DNA from: Camelus ferus
Taxonomy: Eukaryota
Assembly (NCBI RefSeq): GCF_009834535.1
Contig: NC_045696.1
Coordinates: 18,850,001-18,914,000, forward strand
Direction: 5' to 3'
DNA length: 64,000 bases
Below, in pieces: positions 15,900 to 64,000 of this stretch (within the stretch, counting starts at the first letter, position 1; the number at the start of each line of letters is the position of its first letter). The notes beneath the pieces are model-generated. The model did no database searches. It was not told the DNA's origin and saw nothing but the letters and a program-made list of their open reading frames with translations. A program made the position numbers and the translations under genes.

Positions 15900-17100
15900 T
15901 GTATTTCAAAAAATATATAATTTCAAGTGATTATAGATTCATGGGAGCTTTTTTAAAAAAACAATACAGAGAGGTTTCATATACGTTTGACCTCGCTTCT
16001 CCCAATGCTAACATCTTGCACAGCCATAGTACACTATCAAAACTGGTGAACTGTCTGTGTACAATCCAGAGTTTATTCAGATTTCACCAGTTTTACAAGC
16101 ACTTTGTGTGTGTATGCACTTGAGCATGCCCGCTCATTCATATATGTAGTTCTATGCAATTGATACTCCAGGCAAGTTCTGGTGCCCAACATACCATGAC
16201 GCCAAACAAACCTTAATGCTGAAGTTTGGAGCAGAGAAAGGTTTACTGCAAGGGCCGAGCAAGGAGGATGGGGTGGCTCATGCCCAAGAAAACCCTGAGT
16301 TCCCAGAGGGGTTCAGCAAAGTGTGTTTAAAGGCCAGGTAAGGGAAGGAGGTCACAGGGTAAGTAATCAGCTCGGCTCAATTCTCTGATTGAAGTGAGGT
16401 CAGAGAGGTCAACACTATCAACCCCTAGGCACCAGAAGGTCTGGGGGCCAAGTGCTCACAATCATCAAGTAGTTAATTTCCTCCTTTTGGTGGTGTTTTA
16501 TAGCATCTGAAAAACTCAGGAAATATACATGAGATACTATTATCTGGGTACTTCAGAGAGGAGCTACAGCAGAGGATATGGGGGGAGGGGGTCTGTCCCA
16601 GGAAGTTCCCACAGGGTCCTGCTCAGTTACACAATTTTATCACATATGCAGGCTTTGTGTAACAAGCATCTTAATCGAGACAAAGAACAGTTCCATCACC
16701 ACAGGACTTTTTTGTGCTATTCTTTCATAACCACACCCTTCCCTACCTGTCCCATCACTAACCCCTGAAAGCCATTAATCTGTTTCCATCTCTATAATAT
16801 TATTTCATAAATGTTATATAGAAGGACTCATATAAATATTTAACCGTTTGAGATGATTTTTTTCCCTCAGCATAATTATTTTGAGATTATTCAAGTTGTA
16901 ATGTGTTTTAGTAAGATTGTTCATTTTTTGGATTCTGAGTCGTATTCCAAGGCATGGATGTGCCGTTGCTTTACTAAAAGACTTTGGGCCTGGGCCAGTG
17001 TTGGATTATTATGAAAAGAGCTTCTATGAACAACTGCGTATACATTTTTGCTTAAATGTAAGTTTGCATTTGTCTGGGATAAATGCCCAACAGTGGTAGG
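15900..17100 (-). mobile_element. Old L1MC/MD 3' end interrupted by an LTR
   Basis: ttctcccaatgctaacatcttgca...cagatttcaccagtttta; ctatgcaat|tttatcacat rejoins when 16161-16635 is removed; continues to ttgtctgggataaatgccc. Confidence 0.75.
16161..16631 (-). mobile_element. ERV1 solo LTR (MER34-group-like) with 4-bp TSD
   Basis: TG...CA termini (minus strand tgtaactgagcaggaccc...gtatca); TSD CAAT at 16157-16160 and 16632-16635. Confidence 0.88.
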
Positions 17101-17427: not shown

Positions 17428-17784
17428 TTTTTTATTTATCTTTTTTTTAACATTTTTTATTGATTTATAATCATTTTACAATGCTGTGTCAAATTCCAGT
17501 GTAGAGCACAATTTTTCAGTTATGCATGAACATATATATATTCATTGTCACATTTTTTTCTCTGTGAGCTACCGTAAGATCTTGTATATATTTCCCTGTG
17601 CCATACAGTATAATCTTGTTTATCTATTCTACAATTCTGAAATCCCAGTCTATCTCTTCCCAATTCCCACCCCCTTGGCAACCACAAGTTTGTATTCTAT
17701 GTCTGTGAGTCTGTTTCTGTTTTGTATTTATGCTTTTTTTTTTTATTTTTGTTTTTTGGGTTTTTTTAGATTCCACATATGAGT
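17428..17784 (-). mobile_element. Young lineage-specific L1, 3'UTR only
   Basis: Poly-T start; close reverse complement of 56975-57320; probable TSD CTGTATT at 17421-17427 and 17785-17791. Confidence 0.9.
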
Positions 17785-18153: not shown

Positions 18154-18282
18154 TTTTATTTTGGGGGGGGGGCAGGGGTGGTGGTAATTATATGTTTATT
18201 TTTAGAGGAAGGACTGAGAATTGAACCCAGGACCTTGTGTATACTAAGCTGCTCTCTACCGCTGAGCTACACCCTACCCCCC
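18154..18282 (-). mobile_element. tRNA-derived SINE, Vic-1-like (camelid)
   Basis: Minus strand ggggtagggtgtagctcagcggtagag...ggtcctgggttcaattc...aaaaataaa...taattacc...cccc plus A tail; A box 18259-18269, B box 18218-18227. Confidence 0.8.
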
Positions 18283-28900: not shown

Positions 28901-30466
28901 CAGTGGGTAGGAGAGAGGAATTGATAATGTTTGGAGAAGAGAAGATATAAAGCACTTACCTTATGTATTAAATAATTTAAATAATTGATAATTTTATTAC
29001 ATTAAATATATTAGTTTTTTATTGTGGAAAGCAACATTATTAACAGAAAAATAAGTTTTACTTTGAAAAAATTGGGGAAAGTAAACATTTGTCTTAATAT
29101 GTCCTGAGCATCATTCAAGATTAAATTTAAATAAATGTTGTACTAAAATCTTTAAAATTTATACTGCTTTAAAATATAGTTAACTTAAAAACATTTCTTT
29201 CTATAATATCAACTTAAAATGATGAAATACTTTAAGGAGGTTTAAAAGATTACACATTATTGGAAAAGGTTTTATTAGGTCAAAATGTATTGGAGAAGAG
29301 CACAAAAGACATGTATTTTATTCCGAGCTCTGCTTTTAGACTCTCTGCATTTGTTCATTCATTTGTAAAATTAGGTAGTTAAGTAGACATTTCCTACCTT
29401 TGTAGCATTATTTTTCTTGTATTTTTTAATGAGATAAATTATGTTTATCTCAAGCATATGTGTTGTTTAAAAAGAAATATTGTAAGTAAATATGCTATAT
29501 TAGTTTATGGAAGACAAATACATTCAAACAGCCATCAAGTATTATTTCATGGTTGGTAAATAACCTTGTAAGACAAATTAACAAAAATAGGATGAAGGGA
29601 GAGATACTTATTTTACTTGTCTCAGTTTTTAATTAACCATGATAATCGTAATAGGAATATTCACCTTCATTAATGTAGTACCCACCCTCCCACAGACTCA
29701 CACTTATGTGGACACATATATACACATAAATTCAAGTTGAACGACAAGAATAATTAACAAAGTCTAAGATAGTTTAATTAATGAGCCGCGGTCTCAGCAC
29801 CAATTCTGAAAGTTAATGAGTGAATGGATCCACTGTGTTGTGCTACTCTGTGTTTTCTTTAAAAGGACAGAATCATGGGAGTCTGCTTACATTCTGTTCT
29901 ACTCTGTATCTCATTAATTTAGCTGTAAGCAGGTACCACCCGACACTCTCTATAGAGATACGCTTTTATACCATCTATGCTTAGTTAACCTGAAAAATAG
30001 TTAATGTTCCAGCCCACTTAAAAAGAGAAAGTTCAAGTGGAAACAAATCCTAAACAATTTGTTCCTGTTCTTAAAAACAAAATGTATCTGAATGTGAAGT
30101 TCAAATAACACACATTGTTTAGTGTGCATAACCTTTTATAGTAGATATCACATCTATGCTTTCTCTTAATTTATTTCTACTTTAGAGACAAGACCTAAGA
30201 TCCCAGAGAAGGTTAGCTTTCTCTATATAAGACTGAAGGTTATCTAGCTTATAATTGGCAGTATTGGATCTGTTCATGACGTTCTGAATCAGTCTGTATT
30301 GCCCCTTTTCTCTATGTGATGGAAAATATATATGTATATGACATTTGTCTACCAAATTAAACAAGCAGAATTTCAAGCATGAAATATGCATATGCTAATA
30401 GTGCATTCATTTACTATATTTCCTGATTTTCTTGTTTGTAATGAGTTTATCTAGGAATACACTTTT

Positions 30467-31555
30467 TTTATTGAAGTATAGTCAGTTACAATGAGGTAGT
30501 TTCTGGTGTACAGTACAATGTCCCAGTCATGCATATACATACACACATTGATTTTCATATTCTGTTTCATTAAAGGTTATTACAAGATAATGACTATAGT
30601 TCCCTGTGCTATACAGAAGAATATTTTTTTCAAATCCATTTTTATATATAGTGACTAACATTTGCAAATCTCACACTCCCAAATTTATCTCTTCCCACCC
30701 CTTGTCTCCTGGTAGCCATAAGATTGTTTACTATGTCTATGAGTCTTTCTGTTTTGTAGATGAGTTCATTAGTGTCCTCTTTTTTTCCCCTTTTTTTTTT
30801 TTTTTAGATTCTACATGTGAATGAATTCATATGGTATTTTTCTTTCTCTTTCTGGTTTACTTCACTTAGAACGACGATCTCCAGGTCCATCCATGTTGCT
30901 GCACATGGCATTATTTTATTCTTTTTTATGGCTGAGTGGTGTTCCCTTTTATAAATATACCACAACTTCTTTATCCAGTCATCTGTCAATGAACATAAAA
31001 CAAAATGACAACCCATGGAATGGGAGAAAATATTTGCAAATGGTGCGACTGACAAAGGCTTAATTTCCAGAATACATAAACAGCTCAGACAAATTAATAA
31101 CAAAAAAACAAAAAAGCCAATCCAAAAATGGGAAGAAGACCTAAACAAGAAATTCTCCAATGAAGACTTGCAAATGGCCAATAGGCACATGAAAAAATGC
31201 TCAATATCACTAATTATCAGAGAAGTGCAAATCAAAACTACAATAAAATATCACTTCACACTGGTCAGAATGGCCATCATTCAAAAGTCTACAAATGGTA
31301 ACTGCTGGGTAGGCTGTGGAGAAAAGGGAACCCTCCTACACTGTTGGTGGGAATGTAGTTTGGTGCAGCCATTATGGAAAACAGTATGGAGATTCCTCAA
31401 AAAACTAAAAACAGACTGACCATATGATCCAGCAGTCCCACTCCTGGGCATTTATCTGGAGGGAACTCTGATACATGTACCCCAGTGTTCACAGCAGCAC
31501 TGTATACAATAGCTAAGACATGGAAACAACCTAAATGTCCATCGACAGTTGACTT
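30467..31555 (-). mobile_element. 5'-inverted (twin-primed) L1
   Basis: 30467-~30996 antisense 3' end with poly-T; ~30997-31555 sense ORF2 C-terminus (ORF 31015-31419: MEWEKIFAN...[18 protein letters not shown]); TSD gaat(a/t)cactttt at 30455-30466 and 31556-31567. Confidence 0.88.
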
Positions 31556-32419
31556 GAATTCACTTTTATTTTACCCTCAGATATGTGTTTCATTTGTAGA
31601 AATTTCAATTTGTAAAATAATTTTCACAAGTCATTTCTTCATCCTCTATGAGACACCTGACCCATCATAATCTTCTAACACAAAAGTGTGATTCCTGACA
31701 GTGCTAACTGTAGATAGCTAAGTGACATATTTTCTAGCCATGGATCTAATGAAACCTCTCAAATTAAATCACAGAGTCTTATTTATTTAGACTATATATG
31801 ATGATTTATTTTTTTTAACCAATTTCCAGTTAAAATTCTTATAAACAATTATAAGAAGAATGGATTTAAAATTTCCAATGACTTCTGTAAAAATTTTGTG
31901 ACCATTGATTTTAGATTTTAAATAAATTCGCTTTGTAAAAGTGACTCAATCACCAGAGCTCTCTCCAGATAGTAACAGCTATCATTCTTACTGTGTTCCT
32001 AGTATTAAATCAAATAGTGGCACGGCATTACCTACTGCCTTCCAAATATCCATTCTCTCCTTCCTCCTTTTTAAATTCAATGTTGGACAGACCATGGGCT
32101 CATCTGAAAATATTCACGCCAAGCTCCATTGTCCATTATGGTGCATTTGCTATGTGTAGAGTTCCAGTCGAGGGCTAAATGGTTCTGATAGAGCATTTAC
32201 TTTCGTGATACAGGCATTTTTGTCTAATTCTCCTTCTTTCTTTCTGAAACATGGAGATGTATAGCCATCCAGAAATCATGACTTTATGATCATGAGTATG
32301 AAAGTTAACCTAGAAAGATGAAGCATGGAGCTGGAGCTCAATTTTACAGTGTTTGTAGGGTTTCGTAGGCCTGTAGAGTTTTCTCTTAATTGTTGCTAAT
32401 TAATAGAGCTAAGGATATC

Positions 32420-38019: not shown

Positions 38020-41000
38020 TTGAAATCTGTTAAAAACTGTTGCTATTCTAAGTCATTTGCATTTTAATACAAGTTTTAGGAATCACCTTGTCAAGTTCCA
38101 AAACTTTTGCTGAACGTTTTAATTGAGATGCATTAAAATCTTTGGATCTATTTGGGAACATATGACATCTTAATGAATTTTGAGTCTTGCAATCTTAAAG
38201 CAAAGCATATCTCTAGATATTTACTTTTCTAAATATTTCAAAAATATTTCAAAATTTCCAGTGTACAGGTCTTGTAGATGGTTTACTAAGTTCATCTGAG
38301 ACTATTTCATGTTTTTGGAGAATGTATTTTAAATGTAGTTGAATTATTGATTTTGTTTTTAAATTGCTTATTGTTATTTTATAAAAATACAATCAATTGC
38401 TTAATTTATTTATTAGTTCTGGTAGCTTATCTAATACAGTTTCTTGGGATTTTATACAAATAATAATATTCTTTGGAGATAAAGACATTTTTGCTTAAAC
38501 CATTGCAATCGTTTTGCCTATAGTTGCACTGGACAAGAACTCTAGAGTAGTGATAAACAGAGTGATCGGTGTGGTATTTCTTCTTGTTTCAAGTTTTAGG
38601 ATTTCAACGTTAGTCTTGCCGCATTAGTCTCAGTAGTCGACAATTAGTCTTTCAACAGTAAGTATTATCTTGCAGCAGGCTTTTCATAGATGGCCTTTAT
38701 GTGGTTGAGGGAAGTGTCTTTTATTATTAATGCTCAGATTTTTACCAAGAATACGTGGTGATTTTTTTTTTCAAATTTATGTTTTCTCATCTTTTTTACT
38801 GATCAGCTTAACCAGAGTTTTGTATTTTATAAAGCTTATGAAATAAGTATTTGAAGCCATAAATTCACATATAAGGATGTTTTAGCTCCCTTCTGTTAAT
38901 TTTGATATGTCAAGTTTTCATTGTCATTTAGTTCAATATTTCTACTTCCCCTTGTGATTTTATTTATACTTGAGTTGTTTAGAAATAAAAATTGCTTAAT
39001 TTTGAAATATTTAAATATTTAGAAATTTTCTACTTTCTAGATGTTGTTAGCTTATTTAATTTCATTGTGATCAGGAAACATATTCTGAAATATTCTCATG
39101 TTGAAAAATCTGTTGAGACTTGTTTTATGGCCCACAATATAAACGTTTATAAACGTTATTAACATTTTATGTGTGTTTTTAAAAAGTTTAATCAGTTATA
39201 CTTGGGTGCTGTGTTAGAGTTAGTTGAATTTTCTACAAACTTTCTGGATTTTTGTCTAATTCATCTATAAATAATTGGAAAAAAGTAATAAAACCTCCAT
39301 CTGAAGGTACAGATTTGGCTATTTTCCCTTTAATTCCATTATTTTTCCATATACTTTGAAGTGGTTTTATTAGGTACATACATATTTATAATTGTTATGT
39401 ATTTCTAATACATTGACATTTTATTGTGAATAAGTGCCATTTTCTTAGTGTTTCTACTTTAGTGACAATTTTTCCTATCATTAATAAGGCCATTCCAGCT
39501 TTAATATGATTAATAGTTACTTGAATATCTTTTTCCTTTCTTCTATTTACACCCTGTTTGTACCTTTTACTTTTAGTATGTGTTCATCTTGCAAACAGCA
39601 TATAGTTGAATCTTGTTGCTTTTATATTCTAATCATCTCTGCATTTAATATAACGTTTATTCTGTTTACACTTAATGAAATTAGTGACGTGATAGTTTGT
39701 CATTTGGATATTTGCTTTCAATTTATTTTATCTGTTTTTATTTGATTATTCATCTGTTTGTTTCAACTATCCCCTTTATTAGTTTTTTGTCACTTGAATT
39801 TTTTTTTGTATTCTAGTTTGATTTATTCCTTGGCTTTACTTTAACTTAATATTTAGTCATTCTAAAAAAGACAGATTTCTGTTTAATGTGAAGCAATATT
39901 CTTGTATTTAACATATGATTTCTTCATGTTTAAAATGGGAAACTTGAAAACTTGATAATTTATAATTCTATTTATAAACCACCAATTTATAATTCTATTT
40001 ATAAACCACCTGTGTTCTTATACAATGTATATTAATTCTATAAATGTTATAAACCCCAGCATAAGTTGTCACAATTTTTGCTTTCAAGTCATATGGCTTT
40101 TAAAAATTTCATGAAAAAGACAAATTTGTGTGCATGTATACTTTTTTATTTACCTATGTATTTTCTACTTCTTTTTCTCATTATTCTTTCATTCTTGTAA
40201 ATTTGCAGTCCCAACCAGTGTTGTTTCTCATCAGTCTGAAAAATTTTCATCATTTCTTATAGGTCAGGAATGCTTGCTTCAAAGTCTTTCACTTTTTATC
40301 TGAAAATTTTTGTTTTCTTTATTGTTTATGGGTAGTTTCACTGGATATGAAATTCTTGGTTCAGTTTGCTATTCTAATGACTTCCAGCTTCTATCGTTAC
40401 TGTTGTGTCTGCCATCTCCAAGCTGTTGAGAAAATCTACTGATTTGTTTTTCAATTTTATTAGTGTATATTTTTACCAGAATGCTTCTACTGTTTATATT
40501 TTATATTTCTTTATTGGCATTCCTTCTTTGTAATTCATTAAGACTGTTTTTTCCCTTGAATTCTTTCAACACATATTTCTTTACTTTTGAACACATTTCT
40601 AATAGTTGCTCTGGTGTTTTATCTGTGAAATCAAGCACTTAGTTCTGCTCAGATGCAATTTTCACTGATGACGTTTTTCTTCTGTGTAGAGGGTTATTTT
40701 CCTGTTTATTTGCCTATCTAGTGATTTTCGGTTGAAAATTGGCCATTGTGATTAATATACTGCTGAAGGTCTGGTTTACATGTGTTCTTACAACTTCCTT
40801 GGGCAAATAAACCTTTTTTAGCTTTTATGCTCTCTGTGTATGTATAGTTTGGCTCTTAGGCAAGTATTTGGACAAAGTATAGTTTTCAGTAATTTTGTTG
40901 TCCACTTTCTCAGTAATTCCCTTACTACTGGTGAGCCCACCCTGGATTGTCAGTTGCTCTCCCAGGATCATATTCTGTCTTCTGACACATCCATTATGCA

Positions 41001-55700: not shown

Positions 55701-56644
55701 CCATTGCTTAGTAGGAAAAAGTAAAATCCCCTCTAAAACAAATATGGAAATAAAAAAAGAATGTATAAAAATTTCAATAGAATAGTTATGTTTTATTTTT
55801 AAATGTCTAATATAAATTATTGCCCAGGTATGACTTTGAATTTAATGTCTATGAAAATTATAATTAAGAACTTGAAATGTAGGATCTAATTTTTTAATTT
55901 ATATAATTTGAATCCTTGATGTAAGTTATATAATATAAATTATTCTTTTATAGGCATGAGTCTTTTTTTGGTCTTATTTGCATAAAATTGGTATTGGATA
56001 TGGGATACAGGAAAAAAAAATCTTGTGATGAGAATGTCCCAGTGAAACAGTAGCCTTGGAGCCAGGAGTTGTAGTTTTCTCACTTTTTAATGACATGAAA
56101 TTGGGCAACCCAGTATCTCAGTTCTCCCTCTCTCCCTCTCATTCTCCTTCCTTCTCTCCTCTCTTCTCTCTTTTTGTCCCTCCCTCCTCTCTCTCTCAAC
56201 TAAACATCCTACTGGGTTGCAGGAATTCTTCCAGCTATACCTGACAGTAACTGAGTGACAAGGATCATTTACATAGTAATATCTACTCTGTTTTGCTTTC
56301 TTCCCCTCTTTCCTTTATTAATGGCATAAATCAGAACTACTTTCATCATGAAAAGTTCTCAGTGTCAAGATAATGTATCTCTATAAAGAAGCAATTTATC
56401 TGTGGTTTAAATCAAATAATAAGGTGATGGACAGAAGAATGGGGACTCTCAAGATACCCGTTTCTTTTTTCTTCCACTTTTATTGAGATGTAGTTGACAT
56501 ACAACATTGGATAAATTTAAAGTATACAGCATAATGACTTACACACATCATCAAACGATTGCCACATGTTTAGTGAGCATCCATCATCTCACATAGATAT
56601 CAAATTAAAGAAATAGGAAAAATATTTTTGTGATAAGAACTCTC

Positions 56645-57326
56645 AGTATGGAGATTCCTAAAAAGAATAGGAATAGACTTACTATATGACCCAGGAATCC
56701 CACTCATGGGCATATATACAGAAGGAATCCTACTTCAAAATGACACCTGCACCCCAATGTTCATAGCAGCACTATTCACAATAGCCAAGAGATGGAAACA
56801 GCCTAAATGTCCATCAACAGATGACTGGATAAAGAAGAGGTGGTATATTTATACAATGGAATACTACTCAGCCATAAAAACCAACAACATAACGCCATTT
56901 GCAGCAACATGGATGCTTCTGGAGAATGTCATTCTAAGTAAAGTAAGCCAGAAAGAGAAAGAAAAATACCATATGAGGTTGCTCATATGTGGAATCTAAA
57001 AAACAAACAAACAAACAAACAAAAAAACAAAGCATAAATACAAAACAGAAATAGACTCATAGACATAGAATACAAACTTGTGGTTGCCAAGGGGGCAGGG
57101 GGTGGAAAGAGATAGACTGGGATTTCAAAATTGTAGAATAGATAAACAAGATTATACTGTATAGCACAGGGAAATATATACAAGATCTTATGGTAGCTCA
57201 CAGAGAAAAAAATGTGACAATGAATACATATATGTTCATGTATAACTGAAAAATTGTGCTCTACGTTGGAATTTGACACAACATTGTAAAATAATTATAA
57301 ATCAATAAAAAATGTTAAAAATAAAA
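56645..57326 (+). mobile_element. Young 5'-truncated L1 (ORF2 end, 3'UTR, AATAAA, short A tail)
   Basis: ORF 56706-56999 [37 protein letters not shown] 57304-57309; same subfamily as 17428-17784. Confidence 0.92.
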
Positions 57327-58199
57327 GAGACCTGATCTCAAAGTACAGCCTTTATACTTACAGTTTCTCTTAATAATTTTAATGGATGCTTACTGTGTTA
57401 TTCAATGATGGTTAAAATTTATGAATTGACAAAATACTATGCAATTGTCAATTAATTTTAACAACATTTTTATTAATTACACATTTATTGATATTCTAGT
57501 AGAAAAGACAAGCAAATATAAAAACAGAAGACAGACAAATACAAAATGGTCAACAATGACCATATTATTAGAATAGAGATACATGAAATAGAAGTGGGCA
57601 AAATTAGATGAGTTTATATTACTAGTGGGTAATCTGTGATTTAATAGTAATAGACCTAACATATTTTAAAATGGCTTGGCCTTTTACTCATGATTCTTAC
57701 ATATTTCAGATGTCAGCAATCAGGAACTGGTGAGTACTGGGGCAGCCACCCCAAGGAATTTGATTGACAAAGATGTGCTTCCAAAAAGAGTGATATTGAT
57801 TTAATTATAAACAGCTGCCAAATTTTTTAATATCATGCAAGTCTTGGTAACTTTACTTCTGCAAACTGCTGGTGTAGTGTATTTATAGCATGCCAAAAAT
57901 TGCCTTACATTTATCAGAAAATCTTTTTGAATTCCAGGAGTGACATCTGGGAAAAATACAAGAGAAAACACTTAAATATGTTTCTTACATGATTTTGTTT
58001 GTAAATGTCTTTCATCAGGATGAAGAATGATTCCTCTAAACCATAAAATCGGTATTGTTTTAATCTGAGTTTGTGGTCGTGCTCATTTTGTATGATCTTT
58101 GTCTTTAAATCATTCCATTTATTAGCAGATAAAATGCTATCGTTGTATAATTTTAAAAAAGGAAGAATAAATCTTTTAGTCCGTGGGGGGTGGGGGGAG
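57327..58199 (+). other. L1 3'-transduced unique sequence
   Basis: Non-repeat DNA between the L1 tail and the second TSD copy (AAGAACTCTC at 56635-56644 and 58200-58209); own AATAAA at 58166-58171. Confidence 0.8.
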
Positions 58200-59582
58200 A
58201 AGAACTCTCCGGATTTACTCTCTTAATAACTTCCCGTTATTATATATAGCAGTGCTAATTATAGTTATCATATTGTACATTACATCCCTAGTGCTTATTT
58301 ATCTTATAACTGGAAGTTTGTACCTTTTGACTGTCTTCATCTAATACGCTGTCCTCCACCTGTGGTAACCACAAATCTGATCTCTTTTTCTATGAGTTTG
58401 CTTGCTTCTTTTTGAAGGTAATTAACTTACAACACTATGTTACACAACATATCGATTCGGTATTTCTATACATTTCAAAATTATCACTACAATAAAGTCA
58501 GTCATGATATGTCTCATAGGAAGATATACATAGTTACTGACTATCTTGCCACACCGTATATTTCATGTCTGTAACTCATTTATTTTGCAACTGGAAGTTT
58601 GTATCTCTTAATACCCTTTTTATGTCCTGTTTTTTAATTACTTTGTAATATACATAAAATATTATATTAGTTTCAGATGTAGAACAGAGTGATTTAATAT
58701 ATTTATATATTACAAAGTGATCACCACAATAAGTCTAGTTACCATATGTCTATACAGATTTATTACAACATTATTGACTGTATTCTCTGTGCTATATACA
58801 TTGCATCCTCATGATTTCTTTATTTTATAGCTGAAGTTTTATACCTCTTAAGTCCCTCTCCTTATTTCACCCATCTCCCCATCACTCTCCCCTCTGACAA
58901 TCAACAATTTGTTCTCTATATCTATGAGTCTGTTTCTGTTTTGTTTTGTTTGTTCACTTGTTTTGTTGTTTAGATTCCATGTATAAATTGTCATATGCTA
59001 TTTGCTTTTGTCTAACTTATTTCACTTAAAATAATACCCTCAAGGTCCAACCATGTTGTTGCAACTTGCAGGACTTCATTCTTTTTTATGGCTATCCAAT
59101 ATCCAATTGTATATATACACCACTTTTTAAAATCTATTCATCTATCAGTGGACACTTAAGTTGCTCCCATATCATGGTTGTTGTAAATAATACTGCAGTG
59201 AACGTAGGCATACATATATATTTTCAAATGTGTTTTTTTTTCCAGAAAAATACCAAGAAGTGAAATTGATGGATATTATTGTAGTTCTATTTTTAGTTTT
59301 TTGAGAAATCTCCGTAGCGTTCCCCATATTGGCTGCCCCAATTTAGATTCTCACTAACATTGCACTAGGATTTCCTTATCCCCATATCCTCACCAATACT
59401 TGTTGTTTCTTGTCTTTTTGATAACAGTCATTCTGACAGATGTGAGTTGGTACTGCATTGTGGTTTTGATTTTCATTTCCCTGATGATTAATGACGTTGA
59501 GAATTTTTTTTCATGTGCCTATTGGCCATCTGTGTGTCGCCTTTGAAAAAAATTCCTCTTCAGTTCCTTTGCTCATTTAAAA

Positions 59583-61008
59583 TTTTTTTAAAGTACACTC
59601 AGTTACAATGTGTCAATTTCTGGTGTACAGCACAATGTCCCAGTCATGCATGTGTATACATATATTCATTTTCATATTCTCTTTCATTAAAGGTTATTAC
59701 AAGATATTGAATATAGTTCCCTGTACTATACAGAAGAAATCTGATTTTTTAAAATCTATTTTTATATGTAGTGGCTAACTTTTGCAAATCTCAAACTCCC
59801 AGACTTATCCCTTCCCACACCCTTTCCCCCAGTAACCATAAGATTGCTTACTATGTGAGTTTGTTTCTTTTGTAGATGAGTTTCTTAGTGTCCTCTTTTT
59901 TCTTTTTCTTTCTTTCTTTCTTTCTTTTTAGATTCCACATATGAGTGATATCATATGTTATTTTTCTTTCTCCTTCTGGCTTACTTCACTTAGAATTGAC
60001 AATCTCCAAGTCCATCCATGTTGCTGCAAATGGCATTACTTTATTCTTTTTTCTGGCTGAGTAATAGTCCACTGTATAAATATACCACAACTTCTTTATC
60101 CAGTCACCTGTCGATAGACATTTAGGTTGCTTCCATGTCTTGGCTATTGTAAATAGTGCTGCTGTGAACATTGAGGTGCATGTATCTTTGATTTAGAGTT
60201 CCCTCCAGATATATGTCTAGGAGTGGGATTGCTGAACCATATGGTAAGTCTATTTTTAGTTTTTTGAGGAATCTCCATACTGTTTTCCATAATGGCTGCA
60301 CCAAACTACATCACCAACAGCAGTGTAGGAGTGTTCCCTTTTCTCCACACCCTCTCCAGAATTTATTGTTTATGGACTTCTGGATGATGGCTGTTCTGAC
60401 TGGTGAGAGGTGACACCTCATTGTAGTTTTGGTTTGCATTTCTCTGATAATTAGCACTTTTTGAGCCTTTTTTCATATGGCCATTGACCATTTGTATGTC
60501 TTCATTGGAGAATTGCTGATATCTTCTGACCATTTTTGATTGGGTTGTTTGTTTTTTTGTTACTAATTTGTCTGAGCTGTTTATATATTCTACAAATTAA
60601 ACCTCTGTCAGTCTCATCATTTGCAAATATTTTCTCCCATTCCGTAGGTTGTCGTTTTGTTTTGCTTTATGGTTTCCTTTGCTGTGCAAAAGCTTATAAG
60701 TTTAATAGGTCCCACTGTTAATTTTTGCTTTTATTTCTATTGCCTGGGTAGACTGCCCTAGGAGAACATTGATAAGATTTATGTCAGAGAATATTTTGCC
60801 TATGTTTTCTTCTAGGAGGTTTATTGTGTCTTGTCTTATGTTTAAGTCTTTAAGCCATTCTGAGTTTATTTTTGTGTGTGGAGTGAGGGAGTGTTCTAAC
60901 TTCACTGATTTACATGCTGCTATCCAGTTTCCCCAACACCAGTTGCTAAAGAGACTACTTTTCTCCATTCTATATTATTGTCTCCTTTGTCGAAGATTAA
61001 TTGTCCAT
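59583..61008 (-). mobile_element. Younger 5'-truncated L1 (same subfamily as 30467-31555)
   Basis: 3'UTR gtacagcacaatgtcccagtcatgca shared with ~30500-30535; ORF 60702-60968(-) SLFSNWCWGNW...WLKDLNIRQDTINLLEENIG; ends at YGQLIFDKG-encoding sequence. Confidence 0.9.
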
Positions 61009-63832: not shown

Positions 63833-64000
63833 TATAACAAGGCAGAACTCAAGAAGGAAGTGGGGCCTTCCCAGGACCGATCTCCCCCATATCCTCTGCT
63901 GTAGCTCCTCTCTGAAGTACCCAGATAATGGTATCTCATGCATATTTCTTGAGTTTTTCAGATGTTAAATACCACCACCAAATGGAAGAGATTAACTGCT
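63833..64000 (+). mobile_element. ERV1 LTR (same family as 16161-16631), running off the window
   Basis: ccatatcctctgctgtagctcctctctgaagtacccagataat is identical to the reverse complement of ~16538-16580. Confidence 0.88.

Follow-up and report, generated by a model that had tools for sequence, protein, structure and literature searches.

The window analysed in this work, that is the whole 64-kb stretch of camel DNA, contains an old L1 in antisense orientation, found in two parts on the minus strand (56467-56634 and 58210-59560), and between them, on the plus strand, an insert of 1,555 bp (56645-58199), bracketed by exact copies of the 10-mer AAGAACTCTC (56635-56644 and 58200-58209). The insert is made up of the 3' end of a younger L1 in sense orientation (682 bp, 56645-57326), followed by 873 bp of non-L1 DNA, here called the cargo (57327-58199). 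The elements succeed each other in the order L1 end, L1 tail and cargo, along a single strand throughout. The insertion is real and well bounded, and the cargo is most likely the DNA which formerly lay downstream of this L1.

Most of the large L1 pieces found between 17441 and 61009 lie on the minus strand, and the insert, on the plus strand, has three AATAAA signals, a situation that may be of consequence should the window be intronic.

The host L1 and the duplicated target site

The left part of the host L1 belongs to its 3' UTR, and was recognized by the match of the sequence upstream of the junction to another copy of the same family (L001, described below). The right part continues the 3' UTR, which contains internal units of about 240 bp, and then runs into the end of ORF2; it is about 70% identical to other old L1 copies within the window. 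Between 58275 and 58850, the repeated units of the host 3' UTR are spaced by 237-281 bp, with about 70% identity to each other. We take the host to be an L1MA-type element.

Metagenome contigs were scanned with a short empty-site motif, and two loci were obtained, L001 and L002, both non-orthologous copies of the host L1 family. The motif had 0 matches in viral contigs and 0 in the window. Since the search motif itself selects for adjacency, it was left out of the contiguity test, in which alignments were compared with those of 200 shuffles. L001 agrees with the left flank (56467-56604) at 102 of 132 aligned positions, and with the right flank (58228-58313) at 61 of 85, scores reached in either case by none of the shuffles; the two flanks keep their order, with the motif between them. 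For L002, the right flank (58228-58386) is matched at 117 of 150 bases (0/200 shuffles), whereas the match to the left flank beyond the motif is not above chance (115/200). If the insert is deleted together with a single 10-mer, the register of both loci is restored, with no base gained or lost. With old L1 copies from within the window, a control made of the cargo end and the right flank scored 101 at one paralog, versus 99 for the true join. The host halves are thus colinear in one of two independent family members: the preliminary description of this DNA, which was based on inspection of the sequence, had the insert splitting an old antisense L1, and this is borne out on both flanks by L001 but on the right flank alone by L002.

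The 10-bp copies bracketing the insert, already described as a perfect target-site duplication, are indeed identical, and no third copy is found on either strand of the 64-kb window. The probability of a match of this length arising by chance, calculated from base composition, is 2.8e-6 with the junctions fixed, and about 1.2e-3 if 10 nt of slack are allowed at each of them. The target reads AT/AAGA, corresponding to TCTT/AT on the lower strand; the proposed resemblance to an L1 endonuclease site was also confirmed, against a background of 1.2% of window positions that are equally endonuclease-like. PMC4859970 lists a similar site, TCTT/AA, for an insertion of L1 into APC. At 56635, where the duplication begins, the base is A here and G in both L001 and L002; as judged from these two copies, the A would bring the lower-strand site, TCTT/AT, nearer to the endonuclease consensus.

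The extent of the microhomology at the 5' junction had been given as CA. One base of it, the C, is established, because a C precedes the first base of the L1 segment in all four L1 paralogs. The 10-mer is followed by an A in L001, L002 and the left copy, and by a different base in the right copy. If the original target also had an A after the 10-mer, the duplication may be as long as 12 bp, with one mismatch due to a later change, or else the microhomology may reach three bases (CAG).

Duplications around the separate components of the insert were also looked for. No common word of at least 8 bases is found on the two sides of the L1 alone, nor one of at least 6 bases on the two sides of the cargo alone. 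Because no separate duplication brackets either component, a single event is favoured. The opposite order of things, in which the cargo came first as a tail-less retrocopy with its own 10-bp duplication and the younger L1 was later inserted at its 5' edge, must be considered very improbable: such retrocopies are known for many types of RNA, according to PMC5322556, and AT-rich words of 5-7 bases are common to both sides of the L1 alone, but no duplication of 8 bases or more brackets the L1 alone, and the L1 begins at the base directly after the left copy of the 10-mer, with microhomology to it.

The younger L1 end and the adjoining cargo

The L1 portion of the insert is 5'-truncated, and begins with the final 117 codons of ORF2 (56645-56999, plus strand), which are open and end with the stop codon, as determined by phmmer and from the list of open reading frames. 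The encoded sequence matches residues 1157-1274 of human L1 ORF2p (phmmer, E 1.9e-39); a Pfam search of the same frame gave no match. The 3' UTR follows (57000-57326), with an AATAAA at 57304, a short internal A-rich tail and a second AATAAA at 57320. It is, presumably, of the camelid type. The tail contains 14 A in 23 bases, and its longest A run is 5. The closest relative in the window is a copy on the minus strand (17783-17441), 92.5% identical over 345 bp; in the gap-free part of the alignment, 267 of 284 sites are identical and 17 differ. The end of the L1 piece is in register with the tail of this copy. The presence of a young sense L1 3' end, with a polyadenylation signal and an A tail of its own, was therefore correctly recognized at the outset, although the tail is short. 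The source L1 had also been called active; this is not supported, the L1 piece being already divergent from its nearest paralog in the window, at 17 of 284 sites.

The related copy at 17441-17783 (minus strand) is itself a 5'-truncated element of 345 bp, belonging to the same younger family, and its A-rich tail is longer (22 A in 30 bases). Another L1 3' end, at 30461-31557, is composed of two parts, one of them inverted relative to the other when aligned with the L1 at 59583-60663 (83% and 84% identity), and the switch occurs at 30996/30997; the pattern is that of a 5' inversion by twin priming.

The cargo (57327-58199, plus strand) has a GC content of 31%. No second copy was found by BLASTN (word size 7) within the 64-kb window, where the best other match has an E value of 0.16. 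The segment had been described as unique, a statement which holds for the window plus the two fetched loci, L001 and L002, this being the DNA over which uniqueness is established. When metagenome contigs, which may contain no camel DNA, were searched for exact occurrences of a 26-base motif from the cargo, there were 0 matches. An Rfam search of the window gave no match, and neither did a Pfam search of a 102-codon minus-strand frame which spans the 3' junction.

The presence of the cargo in sequencing runs was evaluated by using 97 words sampled from it. Fifteen of the 24 listed runs contain 0.96-0.98 of these words, a figure which cannot separate one copy from two. The fifteen come from 7 studies, 14 of them from one organism and 1 from another, and one may be the source of the assembly itself. 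As the cargo is almost whole in these runs, it is real DNA of these animals. Two further runs, from one study and labelled as RNA, contain 0.81 and 0.48 of the words, and may in fact be DNA. The remaining runs, with shares of 0.45, 0.32 and 0.20 (guessed to be RNA) and four at 0.00, were not used as evidence.

These data also bear on the idea that the cargo is multi-copy, being either an extended 3' end of an L1 lineage or an unrecognized repeat, or that the far junction was misassembled within a run of G. Uniqueness covers the window and two loci only, and all 15 of the best DNA runs miss 2-4% of the cargo words, as such an explanation would have it. On the other hand, the closest paralog of the L1 within the window terminates at the normal tail, and the cargo is recovered nearly whole from 15 of the 24 listed runs, in 7 studies; very little weight is given to this idea.

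Exon-like splice signals are found on the plus strand of the cargo, at 57710-57729 and from about 58020, upstream of its AATAAA. The possibility that the cargo represents the last two exons of a gene was examined and was not supported: the 20-nt candidate exon at 57710-57729 failed the splice-signal filter, by which the signals do not rise above background; 56 other exon-like pairs within the window passed it.

The far end of the insert and the mode of insertion

The cargo contains a single AATAAA (58166-58171), exactly where a second signal had been noted, and the insert ends 28 nt past it. An AATAAA is found 10-30 nt upstream of no more than 2.1% of window positions, and for these reasons the end of the insert is not randomly placed, even if 28 nt is near the far edge of that range. 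In human tumours, a signal is found 10-30 nt upstream at 274 of 349 transduction ends (PMC13009371). According to PMC4859970 and PMC12350158, 3' transductions typically carry two A-tracts, the terminal poly(A) being a hallmark. Here a terminal poly(A) is absent, a point that the preliminary description does not mention: A makes up 13% and G 50% of the last 30 bases of the insert, and within the last 40 bases no run of A exceeds 3. Its place is taken by a G-rich tract (58179-58199), which adjoins the duplication and is one of five double G-runs on the plus strand of the window.

The G-rich tract has a short purine match to a feature at 18282 (minus strand), where a G-run is followed by a tRNA-like A-box; this is probably the head of a camelid SINE, which the tract resembles. 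Other repeated sequences of the window include an inverted pair of 117 bp (16468-16584 and 63884-64000), 90.6% identical and 47 kb apart, probably a dispersed repeat present twice and of LTR-like appearance, and a perfect 27-bp tandem duplication at 39957-40010.

The whole of these features is best accounted for by a tail-less partnered L1 3' transduction, a reading in which we have good, though not full, confidence. A source L1 located elsewhere would have been transcribed through its own weak AATAAA, and the transcript would have taken in about 870 nt of downstream flank, ending after the next AATAAA. ORF2p would then have nicked the lower strand of the old L1 at TCTT/AT, a site which is present at the junction. 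Priming may have taken place right where the poly(A) tail begins, which we rate as about an even bet, or, with a considerably smaller chance, on a genomic AAGA-like purine tract just past the G-rich end; in either case no A's would be copied. Reverse transcription would have stopped 682 nt into the L1, and the product would have been joined by 1-3 bases of microhomology, leaving a duplication of 10-12 bp. The L1-mediated 3' transduction originally proposed is thus supported in part, by the target-site duplication, the endonuclease-like site, the order of L1 end, tail and cargo and an end 10-30 nt past an AATAAA, and a typical trait, the terminal poly(A), is absent. Because this tail is missing, the event would work like a 3' transduction while being a non-canonical member of that class.

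The missing poly(A) would be directly explained if the insert were a DNA-templated copy, i.e. a break-repair patch for which a genomic segment that happened to include an L1 end with its flank served as template at a staggered break. Templated insertions of class 2, as described in PMC5110952, have neither duplication nor signal nor tail, whereas the insert has a 10-bp duplication, an endonuclease-like site (1.2% background) and an end 28 nt past an AATAAA (2.1% background), and a copy of this kind seems a poor candidate.

The order of the components bears on a further alternative, an RNA chimera. Reverse transcription would have begun on an unrelated RNA, of (pre-)mRNA or intergenic origin, corresponding to the cargo, and would have jumped from there to an L1 RNA, at its 3' end, or else both RNAs would have been ligated beforehand; no L1 would then lie beside the source of the cargo. 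The structure resulting from such an event is the same, its two parts sharing an orientation (PMC13174262), and the shares of 0.81 and 0.48 of cargo words in the RNA-labelled runs, which may be DNA, fit a transcribed source. In the cases described in PMC4859970 and PMC13174262, however, the non-L1 part is 5' and the L1 part 3', the reverse of what is seen here, and read-through is far commoner: in the figures given by PMC12350158, transductions occur in 466 of 5,311 human polymorphic L1 insertions, 82.2% of them at the 3' side. The chimera is accordingly held to be improbable, and transduction by read-through is retained as the preferred reading.

Relation to known insertions

Both 3' transductions and tail-less insertions are known and common, and the insert is unusual only in its missing terminal A run. 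Little of this would be surprising to a specialist, given that 3,665 of 35,115 human mobile-element insertions are tail-less (PMC12350158; total summed in this analysis). No paper on the combination of a missing tail with transduction was found in the literature searched, made up mostly of freely accessible papers, and no camelid transduction catalogue in the main text of such papers; in the accessible text of PMC8605555, transduction is mentioned once, as a general property.

The missing tail nevertheless has some consequences. It makes it possible to distinguish cleanly whether priming began where the poly(A) starts or on a purine tract of the genome, and it points to a blind spot of pipelines that require two tails. 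The pipeline of PMC12350158, as far as its rules are set out there, requires a second poly(A) for a transduction and at least 75% of repeat for a non-canonical insertion; the insert, which is 44% L1 (682/1,555 bp) and has one tail, would by these rules be neither. It is conceivable, but rather unlikely, that partnered 3' transductions without a tail form a class which goes uncounted, and that the insert is one of them; should this be true, transduction rates would be undercounted. In its boldest form, this proposal would have an intronic L1 carrying along the 3' end of a host gene in unspliced form, the cargo then comprising a 20-nt exon and a last exon with an AATAAA belonging to it. Should the source be identified, one camelid source L1 would be tagged and dated by the cargo, and the presence or absence of the insert at this locus would serve as a marker in camelid phylogeny.

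Internally primed or tail-less L1-mediated insertions were reportedly described by Srikanta et al. in 2009. For tail-less insertions flanked by duplications, the proposed explanation is that the tail was primed at its 5' end, decay not being expected to remove a tail wholly (PMC5402677), or that priming took place on internal A-rich RNA (PMC5322556). The insert resembles those reported in both sources in having a duplication and no poly(A), and differs from them in composition, as theirs are plain copies of Alu, L1, small RNAs or mRNAs rather than of an L1 with its flank. With the class 1 templated insertions of PMC5110952 it shares a duplication, a cryptic AATAAA and an endonuclease site, although those have 10-40 added A's and the insert has none; with class 2 of the same source it shares the lack of a tail, and differs in possessing both duplication and signal. 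The RNA/L1 chimeric insertions of PMC13174262 and PMC4859970 are similar in joining L1 and non-L1 sequences in one orientation within one duplication, while their non-L1 RNA lies 5' of the L1 and that of the insert lies 3'. Compared with partnered L1 3' transductions, the insert is without a terminal poly(A), and comes from a camel genome; it shares with them, as they are described in PMC4859970, PMC13009371 and PMC12350158, the 5'-truncated L1 end, the internal tail, the non-L1 cargo, an AATAAA 10-30 nt from the end, a short duplication and an endonuclease-type site.
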